Source: a virus (Duplodnaviria; Heunggongvirae; Uroviricota; Caudoviricetes). From it: a stretch of 11,709 nt of DNA. The notes below the pieces were generated by a model. That model was not told the DNA's origin. It worked only from the letters and a program-made list of their open reading frames with translations, and made no database searches. Positions 1-11,427 of the stretch are shown here, in pieces; the first letter of the stretch is position 1; each line of letters starts with the position of its first letter. The position numbers and the translations under genes are program-made. The DNA lies in IMG/VR virus record IMGVR_UViG_3300037455_000372, positions 1 through 11,709 of that record. One strand, given 5' to 3'.

Positions 1-781
1 AGTCACGGACTAACCTGTGCGATACTTGATGAAGGAAGTTTTTCCTTCTGTTACCCAGTTTTACATAGGCTGCGGCCAGTTGAATACGAACTTTCTCGTA
101 TCGACTGCCACCTTTCTTCGCCTTTGCTAGTTTCCTCTGCAAATGCCTAATCTTTCGCTCCGACTTCTTCTCGAAATGCGGATTCTTAATATTTTCTCCG
201 TTAGATAGAACAATGGTTGATTTGACACCGAGGTCGATTCCTACGCATTCGCCAGTATGTTCCATCTCTGGTACATCAACATCACAGCAGATTGAGCAAT
301 AGTAGTTGCCTTTTTTGCTCTTCTTGATTGTCACATTGTAGATTTTCTTGATGTTTTCGTGCTCGAATGTCTTGCCGAAACGGCACTTGACCATACCAAC
401 CTTCGGTAGTACAATGGAATTGCCAACAATTAGTTGCTTAATATCCTTATGGCACATGGCATTCCGGTAGCTCTGCTTGTCCTTCTTGGACTTGTATCTC
501 GGATACTTGGATTTGCCGGTAAAGAAGTTCTGGTAAGCTTGATTCATATCCATATAGGCATTAGCCAGTCCTTGTGAGTCAACTTCTTTCAGCCATTCCC
601 ATTCTTCCTTAAACGACTTCAATTTCGGCTGGAAGGACATCTTGGTCTCTTCGTAGATATATGACTTGATTTTAAGGCACTGGTTATACACGAAACGACA
701 GCAACCGAAGGTCTTCGCAAAGAATACCTTCTGCGCCTTGTTCGGATATAGCTTGATTTCTATGCCTTTCTTGACTATCAT
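1..781 (-). CDS. tnpB: RNA-guided endonuclease TnpB (IS200/IS605 family), 3'-truncated by the window edge
   Basis: Manual translation from ATG at 781, 260 codons open to the window edge: MIVKKGIEIKLYPNKAQKVFFAKTFGCCRFVYN...EWEWLKEVDSQGLANAYMDMNQAYQNFF...YPRYKSKK...VGIDLGVK...KNPHFEKKSERKIRHLQRKLAKAKKGGSRYEK...RRKNFLHQVSHRLVRD. Typical TnpB N-terminal HTH, YPRFKSK-like motif and RuvC-I motif with Asp183 intact (nt 233-235). Not in the supplied ORF track. Confidence 0.95.
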   Translation of the reverse strand, partial: MIVKKGIEIKLYPNKAQKVFFAKTFGCCRFVYNQCLKIKSYIYEETKMSFQPKLKSFKEEWEWLKEVDSQGLANAYMDMNQAYQNFFTGKSKYPRYKSKKDKQSYRNAMCHKDIKQLIVGNSIVLPKVGMVKCRFGKTFEHENIKKIYNVTIKKSKKGNYYCSICCDVDVPEMEHTGECVGIDLGVKSTIVLSNGENIKNPHFEKKSERKIRHLQRKLAKAKKGGSRYEKVRIQLAAAYVKLGNRRKNFLHQVSHRLVRD

Positions 782-818
782 ACGAAAAATCCTACCGGAA
801 CTCGCACTTCCGGTAGGA
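782..818 (-). terminator. Terminator-like hairpin plus U-tract immediately upstream of the tnpB ATG
   Basis: Minus strand TCCTACCGGAA-GTGCGAG-TTCCGGTAGGA (perfect 11-bp stem, 790-800/808-818), then TTTTT CGT ATG. Confidence 0.6.
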
Positions 819-883
819 CACAATGTACCTAAGTACATCTTAAACTTTCCCACGACGACAAGTGCGAGTTGCCTTCGTATATC

Positions 884-920
884 AGTTTATATATGTAGCA
901 AATTTTCCGAAAATCGTCAA
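884..920 (-). promoter_or_regulatory. Promoter region of tnpB: weak sigma70-like TTGACG-17-TACATA overlapping an ATATAAACT motif
   Basis: -35 at 915-920, -10 at 892-897 preceded by TTGC (this -10 lacks the conserved last T). ATATAAACT at 892-884. Confidence 0.45.
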
Positions 921-931
921 GCGGCTTTCAT

Positions 932-954
932 CTCACCCACTAAAGATGGGTGAG
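932..954 (-). repeat. IS200/IS605 left-end subterminal hairpin
   Basis: CTCACCCA-(T)C-TTTA-G-TGGGTGAG: 8-bp stem with a bulged T, in the context GAGAAAACTCACCCATCTTTAGTGGGTGAGATGAAAGCCGC, which resembles IS605-group ends. Confidence 0.75.
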
Positions 955-981
955 TTTTCTCGTCGCTATGTTATAAAAAAC

Positions 982-2084: not shown

Positions 2085-2094
2085 AATATAGCAA
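2085..2094 (-). promoter_or_regulatory. Extended -10 promoter TTGCTATATT for the leftward operon
   Basis: Exact copy of the recurring motif; predicted +1 at ~2078 gives a ~21-nt leader containing the SD. Confidence 0.65.
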
Positions 2095-2157
2095 CGAATT
2101 CCGAAAATCAACCTCGGTTTTCGAAAAATGACCGCGATTTTCAAAAATCCGACGGAG

Positions 2158-2192: not shown

Positions 2193-3530
2193 ATGTCATA
2201 TAGAGGAATAGAAAACCTGAAATCCGCCGACGAAGTAGTCGAACTCACCCAAGAGCAGCGGAACACGCTCAAGCTCTGCCAAAACGACCCCTACCTGTTC
2301 ATCACTTCATTCGTGCAAACGACTTCCAAGGACGGCACCCACATATTGAAGCCCAGCCCCAGACAGCGAGCCGAGCTGGAAGTTCTGCAGAACCAGCGGT
2401 TCATCAAGTCGGACTGGTACAGACAGTCCGGCTACACGACCATCGTGCTCTCCTATTTCCTCTGGAAGGCGATGTTCACGCCCAATCTGGTACTGACCTA
2501 CTGCGCACCCAAGAAGGCTCAGGCGTACGCCGAGTTCGAGATGCACATCCGACAGGCCATCATCAGGCTCCCCTACGCCATCCAGCCCGGCGTCAAGACT
2601 TGGACGGAACACACAGTCACCTTCAAGAACGGAAGCTCCATCCTAGCGCGTCCAGCAGACCAGAAAAGCATATCCGGGTTCGCGTCCGACTACCTTTTCA
2701 TCGACGAGTTCGGATGGCTGACCGACAAGAAGATGCTGGAACTCACCCAGTCGGAGTTCGTGTGTATAAAGCACAGCGCACGTCGCCACCTCATCCTTGC
2801 CAACTCCCAGATATTCAGCGCACATTCAGAGGCCAACACCCTGTTCTGGAAGAACGGCGACATACCGTTCTACGCCTCCGTCAACACTTGGTGTGCCACA
2901 ACCAAGGAGGAAGAGGAGTTCGAGCAGAATATGAGGAAGTATATGGGCGACAAGGCTTTCGAGGCCGAATACGTCGGCATAAAGAAAGACCCCGAAAAGA
3001 AGAAGCTGTTCTGGGCGGAGAAAATAGACAGCCTTCCGGACCTCGTGAAGAAGAACCACTGGAAGGCCACTTTCCATAGCCAGAAGGCCGACTGGAAGTG
3101 GATCCAGGACAATATGGCAGTGACATCTTTCACCAACAGCCAAGTCGAGTTCAACGGCAACATCTACCCCGGCGTGATACTTGGAGTCTCCGAGTACGAG
3201 GGACACCCGGTTAGCGGAATGGACTTGGGCGGACTGGTCAACGTCGACATCGAGTATTTCGACTGGAAGTACGGCAAGTCGGCCGGAAAGGTGAGGTACA
3301 AGTGCCTAGCACTGCCTTCTATGGTCGAGGCCGCATCGCTGGACTACAAGGAATCCGACCACAAGCCGATGACCAGCACGATAAAGCTGATAGTTGTGGA
3401 ACGGTTAGGATTAACCTACGAGAAGGCCGATGTCCCGGAAACCTCGTACGAGGAAATCTGCAACTACCGTTGCATCAGCAACTACAGGGAGTCGATATCG
3501 TCTTGGCTGGAAACCAACGTCAAGCTATAG
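2193..3530 (+). CDS. Terminase large-subunit (T4 gp17-like) ATPase paralogue, degenerate, fused to a non-nuclease C-terminal domain
   Basis: N-terminal CQNDPYLF, adenine-binding-like PSPRQ, Walker A position RQSGYTT (aa 77-83; canonical RQxGKT), FKNGSSI, Walker B YLFIDE (aa 167-172), and domain end MGDKAFEAEY. No RNase H-like nuclease motifs recognised after aa ~265. Confidence 0.75.
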   Translation: MSYRGIENLKSADEVVELTQEQRNTLKLCQNDPYLFITSFVQTTSKDGTHILKPSPRQRAELEVLQNQRFIKSDWYRQSGYTTIVLSYFLWKAMFTPNLVLTYCAPKKAQAYAEFEMHIRQAIIRLPYAIQPGVKTWTEHTVTFKNGSSILARPADQKSISGFASDYLFIDEFGWLTDKKMLELTQSEFVCIKHSARRHLILANSQIFSAHSEANTLFWKNGDIPFYASVNTWCATTKEEEEFEQNMRKYMGDKAFEAEYVGIKKDPEKKKLFWAEKIDSLPDLVKKNHWKATFHSQKADWKWIQDNMAVTSFTNSQVEFNGNIYPGVILGVSEYEGHPVSGMDLGGLVNVDIEYFDWKYGKSAGKVRYKCLALPSMVEAASLDYKESDHKPMTSTIKLIVVERLGLTYEKADVPETSYEEICNYRCISNYRESISSWLETNVKL

Positions 3531-4061: not shown

Positions 4062-4349
4062 TTAACCGCGCTTTTCCTTCTTGAGTTCCGTAGAAATTCC
4101 GGTCAGACGCACGACAACGGATTTTTCGCAATTCCAGCACTTCGCTACAATCTTGGAATGGTTATCGAACATATCACGCAATGGATATGCGTGGGTACCT
4201 CGTGCGTTGCAGTGCGGACACTCCCAAGTGATTTCAGCCGTGATAGGAAAGGTCACTTGAGTTGCCTTGACTTTTAGCATTCCTCCGTGATTCAACGGGC
4301 CGGGTTTCCTCTGGATTTTCTCAGTATCTCGCATATTTTCAATAGTCAT
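4062..4349 (-). CDS. Zinc-ribbon protein
   Basis: CPHC...CWNC pairs flanked by beta-strand-like segments. Start moved to ATG 4349, which lies 6 nt after TATAAT. Confidence 0.7.
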   Translation of the reverse strand: MTIENMRDTEKIQRKPGPLNHGGMLKVKATQVTFPITAEITWECPHCNARGTHAYPLRDMFDNHSKIVAKCWNCEKSVVVRLTGISTELKKEKRG

Positions 4350-4355
4350 ACCACA

Positions 4356-4401
4356 ATTATAGCAATCCGATATGGACAGCGCAATAGCCAATTGCTATAT
4401 T
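4356..4401. promoter_or_regulatory. Overlapping divergent sigma70-type promoters
   Basis: Minus: TTGCGC(4379-4384)-17-TATAAT(4356-4361)-6-ATG. Plus: TGGACA(4373-4378)-17-TATATT(4396-4401)-6-ATG. Both -10 boxes are preceded by TTGC. Confidence 0.75.
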
Positions 4402-4407
4402 TTGAAT

Positions 4408-4446
4408 ATGACAGCTGACGAAGCCAGAAGCCAGAGGTTAATATGA
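4408..4446 (+). CDS. 12-aa leaderless upstream ORF (MTADEARSQRLI)
   Basis: ATG lies at the predicted +1; its TGA overlaps the next ATG (ATGA). Confidence 0.45.
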   Translation: MTADEARSQRLI

Positions 4447-10518: not shown

Positions 10519-10570
10519 AATATAAAAAGGCCAGATGACGCCTAAAAATGGAACACAGCATCATCCGGCC
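10519..10570 (-). terminator. Terminator-like hairpin plus U-tract immediately upstream of the HNH-NUMOD3 ATG
   Basis: GGCCGGATGATGC (10570-10558) / GCGTCATCTGGCC (10541-10529): 13 pairs including 2 G-U, 16-nt loop, then TTTTT ATATT ATG. Confidence 0.65.
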
Positions 10571-10618
10571 CGAAAAATCTCTATCCAGACAGGTTCCATT
10601 CCATCTGAACTATCAATA

Positions 10619-10627
10619 AGTTTATAT
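10619..10627 (-). promoter_or_regulatory. ATATAAACT motif, candidate late promoter
   Basis: Exact copy, 100 nt upstream of ATG 10518. Confidence 0.5.
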
Positions 10628-10743: not shown

Positions 10744-10772
10744 TTGCGTAGATTGAGCGTTTTTGCTATATT
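10744..10772 (+). promoter_or_regulatory. Sigma70-type promoter, leaderless
   Basis: TTGCGT(10744-10749)-17-TATATT(10767-10772)-7-ATG(10780); TTGC precedes the -10. Confidence 0.75.
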
Positions 10773-10779
10773 TCCGTAT

Positions 10780-11427
10780 ATGATCAATTCGTACATATAT
10801 TGCGGTTCAGAAGACAAGTATGACTGGGACACACTGTTTCAAGAGTGCTTCCCTATTGACAACATAGCCCGGAAACATATGATCCAGGTTATCAACGAGC
10901 TACGTCAGCGAGTGTCCAATACCGAAAAGATGACGCAGCACCATATCATTCCGCGTTGTTTCTACGAATACAAGAACCTGAAGTGCGACAATTCGCAGAA
11001 CAACCTGATTTACGTTACCCAAGAGGAGCACCTGTTCCTTCATTCGTGCGCTGTCGCTTGCTGTAACTATAATCTCAAGTCGAAGCTTAAACAGCCGGTA
11101 ATCGCGATGCTGGGCTACTGGAAGGACGCACAGAAAGAAGGGATACGTAGATACGTCGCTAACGGTGGCAAGATGGGACCTCCACCGAAACAACGACCAG
11201 CAGAGTCTATCTGGAAGCCGATTATAGAGAAAGTCAACGCGAACGAAATGACTGTTAGAGAAGCATTGTCGATATTGAATTTGAAGCGCACTACATTCTA
11301 TAAATTATTTATGAATGAACTAAACCGAGATAGGAATGTTTATTCACGTACAATGAGTGCTATGCGCACCAACTCGGTTCATTCCTCTTCATCGTCCTTG
11401 ACGACGATGTCTTCTCCGACCGAGTAG
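10780..11427 (+). CDS. HNH endonuclease fused to a resolvase/invertase-type arm and HTH
   Basis: TQHHIIPRCF...DNSQNNLIYVTQEEHLFLH nuclease motif, then AQKEGIRRYVANGGKMGPPP...MTVREALSILNLKRTTFYK, resembling the C-terminus of serine recombinases. Confidence 0.8.
   Translation: MINSYIYCGSEDKYDWDTLFQECFPIDNIARKHMIQVINELRQRVSNTEKMTQHHIIPRCFYEYKNLKCDNSQNNLIYVTQEEHLFLHSCAVACCNYNLKSKLKQPVIAMLGYWKDAQKEGIRRYVANGGKMGPPPKQRPAESIWKPIIEKVNANEMTVREALSILNLKRTTFYKLFMNELNRDRNVYSRTMSAMRTNSVHSSSSSLTTMSSPTE

Follow-up and report, generated by a model that had tools for sequence, protein, structure and literature searches.

The guide RNA of TnpB comes from the 3' end and limits on the expression of TnpB itself have been little studied. 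The roughly 100 bases that precede a tnpB gene in a giant phage raise the question whether they control production of the nuclease; this leader is a compact and testable candidate. The window, by which we mean the whole stretch of 11,709 nucleotides analyzed here, opens a virus record of 355 kb that is 93% complete; this giant phage genome contains a T4-like terminase domain.

Our analysis shows that the leader is real and conserved, an uncatalogued and probably cis-regulatory RNA, which most likely gates the production of the nuclease, and we are fairly confident that it is a cis-acting throttle of one direction or the other. A first-pass annotation had proposed a pseudoknotted attenuator or translational switch separate from the guide RNA, and this general picture held: the element is conserved, pseudoknotted, 5' of the gene, apart from the omega-RNA, and probably an attenuator or a translational gate.

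The tnpB element and its leader

The tnpB gene (IS605 OrfB; window 1-781, minus strand) matches the Pfam families HTH_OrfB_IS605 and OrfB_IS605 and is truncated by the contig start; the complete genes of its relatives encode 423 amino acids, and one relative (L001) matches the NCBIfam model guided_TnpB. With a TnpB gene, subterminal hairpin ends and an AT-rich TAM 5' of the left end, the element is of the tnpB-only IS200/IS605 type. A search of the 93%-complete genome for tnpA (Y1_Tnp) gave no match, although the relatives L225 and L228 do have a divergent tnpA. The TTTAT target/TAM motif (973-977, minus strand) lies just beyond the left end; the flanks of homologues diverge upstream of it and insertion sites differ. 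The homologous elements of related phages occupy various sites, start after TTTAT and have right ends that finish with TTCAT, the right end being taken from these relatives because the contig cuts the window's own copy. The IS200/IS605-type left-end subterminal hairpin (932-954, minus strand) is kept in the elements and is distinct from the leader, which is situated between the left end and the tnpB ATG. No close TnpB was found by a protein scan of GTDB genomes and no match in cultured phage records; the leader is present on four MAG contigs, which may derive from phage.

According to folding, the leader comprises about 100 bases with three hairpins (P1, P2 and P3) and a U-run before the ATG, all on the minus strand, and its fold is beyond chance (z = -4.8; 0 of 200 shuffles). 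P1 (842-888, core 879-851) presents the 7-nt loop L1 (CUCGCAC, 862-868), and its basal helix (888-884 with 846-842) overlaps the candidate promoter motif described below, so that it can form only on transcripts begun upstream. Such an overlap occurs in 15 of 21 leaders of one clade vs 1 of 25 of the other, and the promoter-overlapping P1 base was rejected as a general gate on account of this clade restriction. P2 (823-838), the spacer hairpin already noted in the first-pass annotation, is 95.8% paired and has two-sided changes in five of six pairs. P3 (790-818) is a terminator-like hairpin of 11 bp (12 bp counting one G-U) and -19.6 kcal/mol with the 7-nt loop L3 (GUGCGAG, 801-807), and its 3' arm holds an SD-like AGGA (793-790) located 8 nt before the ATG. 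The U-run (785-789; five U, six of eight) follows P3 directly and is separated by three bases from the ATG (781-779), exactly as annotated before.

The long-range pairing of the leader is a 7-bp loop-loop (kissing) helix of 868-862 with 807-801, both loops lying on one strand 55-60 nt apart. The earlier description of an 11-mer (870-860) exactly complementary to the loop region of P3 (809-799) was correct, and in shuffles of the upstream 73 nt a 7-mer complement arose in 0.06% and an 11-mer complement in 0 of 100,000. Rather than a free strand that invades the loop, as had been thought, the 11-mer at 870-860 forms the apex of P1; its complementarity exceeds the loop by two plus two bases, which belong to the pairs that close the loops of the two hairpins.

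Conservation and covariation of the leader

An unbiased set of 50 distinct tnpB upstream regions was selected by TnpB protein similarity alone. In 43 of them a strong hairpin near the ATG has a loop of 7 nt, and in all 43 an exact complement of the loop is located upstream (shuffle p at most 0.008 each). The other seven were four long-loop variants and three regions without a leader, two of which lack it because tnpA lies directly upstream. The long-loop variants (upstream of tnpB in L225, L226, L228 and L229) have loops of 12-15 nt with about 8-13 nt complementary by eye, and two of the four sit between divergent tnpA and tnpB genes. The leader accompanies TnpBs down to 40% identity. Nine close elements already contain three distinct matched loop pairs, 22 loop types were counted among 47 leaders (a set selected on complementarity), and there are 26 loop-pair types overall. 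In homologues the distance from L1 to P3 is 41-50 nt, and the leader always lies between the promoter motif and the start codon. A single broken kiss was seen, in L186 around 4313-4420 (minus strand; 5 of 7 paired), where each of the loops matches a different natural type, which may reflect recombination or an assembly chimera.

In the near clade (20 sequences) the kissing helix is 100% paired with compensatory changes, and two-sided changes were observed in three columns of the kiss, five of P2 and three of P1; the covariation score was reached by none of 500 shuffles. Covariation across homologous leaders, which the first-pass annotation had set as its refutation test, is thus decisively present. 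It does not extend to the proposed 11 nt: only the seven loop bases stay complementary and complementarity ends at the loop edge, with flanking pairs formed in 53-55% across clades, their invariance in the near clade being due only to the fact that they close both hairpins. Comparison of the sequences establishes a leader of three predicted hairpins with a pairing of 7 bp between L1 and L3, a P3 that is shaped like a terminator and covers the putative SD, and a candidate promoter motif at the 5' edge.

The stem of P3 has diverged by 0.4-0.9% in the near clade vs 35-61% at four-fold sites, and its sequence is not the same between clades. Divergence of the loops is 23% vs less than 1% in stems; since it is below the divergence at four-fold sites, there is no sign of diversifying selection on the loops. 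No third copy of either loop was found within the elements. Identical loop pairs are found in L224, L413 and L417 on the one hand and in L003 and L018 on the other, with L1 and L3 trading places between the clades, which suggests that the ancestor of the window's clade underwent an inversion or swap. A YUNR-like motif is present in one loop of 17 of the 26 types vs 31% expected; the types being related, this is a lead only.

Two other explanations of the leader sequence were rejected. The P3 stem of near-clade members is similar to the stem of the right-end hairpin in 7 of 8 bp (L001 around 3245-3272), but mimicry of that hairpin is contradicted by the AT-rich clade, which shows no resemblance. 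A tnpB gene extended in frame to an upstream GTG/ATG, with an ORF from 853 that would run across the leader, is contradicted by the loss of the frame or start in L006 and L007.

Expression signals and leaders of other genes

The 5' edge of the leader is marked by TATAAACT (884-891, minus strand), a candidate phage late-type promoter motif, which has 58 copies in the genome, 43 of them at most 100 nt upstream of a long ORF. Its resemblance to the late promoter of T4 and the presence in the genome of a homologue of the T4 late sigma factor gp55 (G000 about 122,400-122,900, minus strand; phmmer E 4e-5) suggest that it is a late promoter. Alignment also points to a candidate sigma70-like promoter at 892-920 (minus strand; -35 TTGACG at 920-915, 17-nt spacer, -10 TACATA at 897-892), the -10 of which is TATATT in relatives; in the window the candidate fell below the threshold of a consensus scan. 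A like sigma70-type stretch is located at window 2085-2110 (minus strand), upstream of a 64-aa ORF at 2057. In the second IS605-type tnpB element of the genome (G000 245005-243850, minus strand, i.e. L181; 387 aa, 40% identical), TATAAACT immediately precedes the gene and a leader is absent.

SD signals are in use in this phage, where they precede 140 of 387 ORFs vs 10-22 in control windows. The modal spacing in the genome is 7 nt, and the distance from AGGA to ATG in the homologues is 6-13 nt. P3 has the form of a terminator: its stem is GC-rich, and the U-run behind it has 5-7 U in every homologue. As AGGA lies within the 3' arm near the modal spacing, P3 would be both terminator-shaped and SD-hiding, and we infer that translation is blocked by P3, whose 3' arm contains the SD-like AGGA, and not by the 5' segment of the leader to which the first-pass annotation had assigned this role. 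For a relative, contigs assembled from rumen RNA libraries begin inside the leader, cross P3 and enter tnpB; this is a mere hint of read-through, because a single study supplied the start positions and DNA may be present in the libraries. The RNA runs contained only 5-15% of words, in the form of assembled contigs from which ends or levels are not readable.

The kissing leader is not specific to tnpB. Leaders with at least seven complementary loop bases were found behind three of the 58 TATAAACT promoters, each before a gene of selfish nuclease type, and the three leaders of the genome have differing loops. The second one (window 10519-10626, minus strand) consists of two hairpins with the loops AAUGGAAC and GUUCCAUU behind TATAAACT, is unlike the tnpB leader in sequence and precedes a NUMOD3 homing endonuclease gene (window 10518-9664, minus strand). 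Divergent from the latter is a second homing-endonuclease-like gene with an invertase-type helix-turn-helix match (window 10744-11427, plus strand). The third leader (G000 16655-16766, plus strand, corresponding to L180:2656-2766) was found with a covariance model (E 2e-7) and is followed by a gene for a 431-aa TnpB-like protein with RuvC-like motifs by eye and a weak PHROG transposase match; its loops match those of the tnpB leader in 6 of 7 positions, with the roles of L1 and L3 swapped. In L018, the same leader family precedes a homing endonuclease without IS ends, the left-end hairpin being absent. In addition, a leader at L212:1501-1630 is located behind a sigma70-like promoter and before a 160-aa protein without a Pfam family at the cut-off; its SD is downstream of P3, which favors a terminator role of P3 as well as SD hiding. 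The occurrence of one module before unrelated selfish nucleases suggests a shared solution for tolerance in the phage genome.

Possible mode of action and known systems

As a working model, we suggest that a portable, cis-acting leader RNA gates the nuclease gene behind it. P3 alone would be the OFF state, with termination at the U-run and a hidden ribosome site. L1, shown on a pre-folded hairpin, would capture L3 as it leaves the RNA polymerase, before the 3' arm of P3 is free; this would delay the closure of P3, so that a fraction of polymerases reads through and the SD is briefly open, while the finished RNA would relax to P1-P2-P3 and hence to OFF. Production of TnpB would then be low and limited in time, and driven chiefly by the promoter of the element itself.

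The model draws on the folding behavior of homologues. In snapshots of nascent RNA, with the end of the P3 3' arm missing, L1:L3 beats P3 in 19-20 of 20 homologues of one set and 22-26 of 26 of another, and replacement of L1 by A7 restores P3 in most, whereas the full-length RNA favors P3 in the majority of homologues (median probability 0.98), irrespective of where the transcript starts. Taken together, this suggests a kinetic gate. The snapshots overstate the competition, because a nested fold has no way to represent a kiss between two hairpins whose stems stay closed, and the strict 7+7 loops without kept flanks fit a true kiss on intact stems that possibly stabilizes P3, contrary to a permissive kiss. 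In favor of the latter, P3 is already strong and needs no extra lock, and it alone would shut the gene off, yet TnpB activity favors the retention of such elements (PMC10055086). On balance we give a permissive kiss, the direction of which we infer from these considerations, slightly less than an even chance. An equilibrium switch dependent on the start site, seen in the window's copy, was rejected since only 3 of 20 near-clade homologues show it. The P1 3' arm complements the P3 5' arm in the AT-rich clade (20 of 26 at p<0.05), a point for the model, and in none of 20 sequences of the window's own clade, a point against it.

The opposite direction, in which the kiss is an OFF lock that stabilizes P3 for termination and SD hiding until a trans factor opens it (a phage late protein or relief from nuclease feedback), appears to us rather unlikely. 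The exact 7+7 loop geometry without flank extension and the preference for P3 on full-length RNA agree with it, the kissing loop of the corrinoid riboswitch stabilizes the kissed hairpin (PMC10327014), and the near-invariant P3 stem of the near clade is as expected of a protein-binding site. The sequence of this stem, however, varies between clades, the presence of the same leader before unrelated proteins argues against TnpB feedback, and P3 is stable alone (-19.6 kcal/mol), which makes selection for a near-perfect loop match harder to explain. Improbable, in our opinion, is a terminated small RNA of about 95-100 nt, kiss-folded or kiss-oligomerized, that acts in trans and, for example, senses element copies by a loop code. 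Its promoter and terminator would bracket the unit, the loops vary far more than the stems and the three leaders of the genome carry different loops; but the loops stay below four-fold divergence without a sign of diversifying selection, the elements contain no third loop copy, the leader is always directly before a start codon, and the RNA contigs, which cannot show ends, contain no separate pile-up of leaders.

We give very little credence to two remaining explanations. The switch of the first-pass annotation combined invasion of the terminator loop by the 11-mer with pairing of the 5' segment 881-874 to 786-779, including the start codon. These segments can indeed pair (seven Watson-Crick pairs and one G-U), and the switch is possible in the window's copy and its nearest relatives; the sequestration is nevertheless not conserved, being 80% paired with no two-sided, compensatory change in the near clade and reduced to 2-5 bp in most homologues, and the 5' segment is partly upstream of the likely late start. 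Already largely refuted is a feature of the DNA, either a part of the transposon end that TnpA would recognize in single-stranded form or the remnant of an inverted duplication whose copies are kept matched by template switching. IS200/IS605 ends are hairpins, an inverted hairpin copy automatically has a complementary loop and the loop roles are swapped between clades; against this, the actual hairpin of the left end lies apart (954-932), genes outside IS elements have the leader as well (L018 and L212), G-U pairs are tolerated on the coding strand, and matching is kept in the loops only, not in the stems.

The permissive reading can be generalized to a ligand-free, portable gate common to IS605 TnpBs, a second TnpB-like family and homing endonucleases, in which the loop of an upstream hairpin kisses the loop of an intrinsic terminator and controls read-through co-transcriptionally, the loop possibly being an element-specific code; we regard this as conceivable, with the odds somewhat against it. 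We found no description of such a leader in the literature, although a phage catalogue of more than 10,000 structured RNAs (PMC10690425) may list it, and no corresponding terms in the text of a paper on 224 motifs. Neither a natural 5' control element for tnpB nor control of read-through by a kiss on the terminator loop was found in the literature searched, and the portable kissing gate, if true, would be the former and a terminator-control mode new to that literature. The 26 natural loop pairs are ready orthogonal parts for asking in which direction, toward termination or away from it, a kiss on the loop of a terminator acts.

In plasmid antisense kissing systems, such as ColE1 RNA I/RNA II and the pT181 attenuator, two RNAs interact in trans. 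The leader resembles them in the complementary 7-nt loops of variable specificity, and the CUNG start of L1 is similar to the YUNR U-turn, but both leader loops are on one strand. In the corrinoid riboswitch, of which repressing and activating forms exist, an intramolecular L5-L13 kissing loop likewise bears on a hairpin, deciding the terminator or RBS hairpin (PMC10327014). The leader differs in having no aptamer, no conserved L5 and a free loop sequence instead of a fixed consensus; a search with Rfam 15 covariance models yielded no match at E<=1 in the window and only chance-level matches at four loci. Moreover, the kissed hairpin of the leader is the terminator itself, whereas P13 of the riboswitch is a competing hairpin (PMC10327014). 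Like the omega-RNA, which overlaps the 3' end of tnpB and the right end (PMC10055086), the leader is a structured RNA inside a tnpB element; unlike it, the leader is 5' of the ATG and also precedes non-TnpB genes.

Similar in function is the leader of Salmonella IS200 tnpA, with a left-end terminator, an SD-hiding stem-loop and the art200 antisense RNA (PMC4513863). There too, a gene of the IS200/IS605 family is held down by a terminator together with a 5' structure that sequesters the SD. The controlled gene is tnpA there and tnpB here, the IS200 terminator and SD hairpin are separate with the terminator upstream of the start, and we found no loop-loop helix described (PMC4513863). The homing endonuclease genes of the T4 family (I-TevI/II/III, segB and Aeh1 mobE) have SD-hiding translational hairpins (PMC2988022). 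They share with our locus a selfish nuclease gene in a T4-like phage, a late promoter (a candidate one at our locus) close upstream and a stable hairpin over the ribosome site. Late transcription of the T4 genes starts inside the hairpin, which the late RNA therefore cannot form (PMC2988022), whereas the motif at 891-884 lies about 70 nt upstream of P3, which starts at 818 and is favored on short transcripts in most homologues. The leader is thus unlike the T4 hairpins in that P3 lies wholly within the predicted transcript and has the shape of a terminator, and in its additional, covarying kissing helix.
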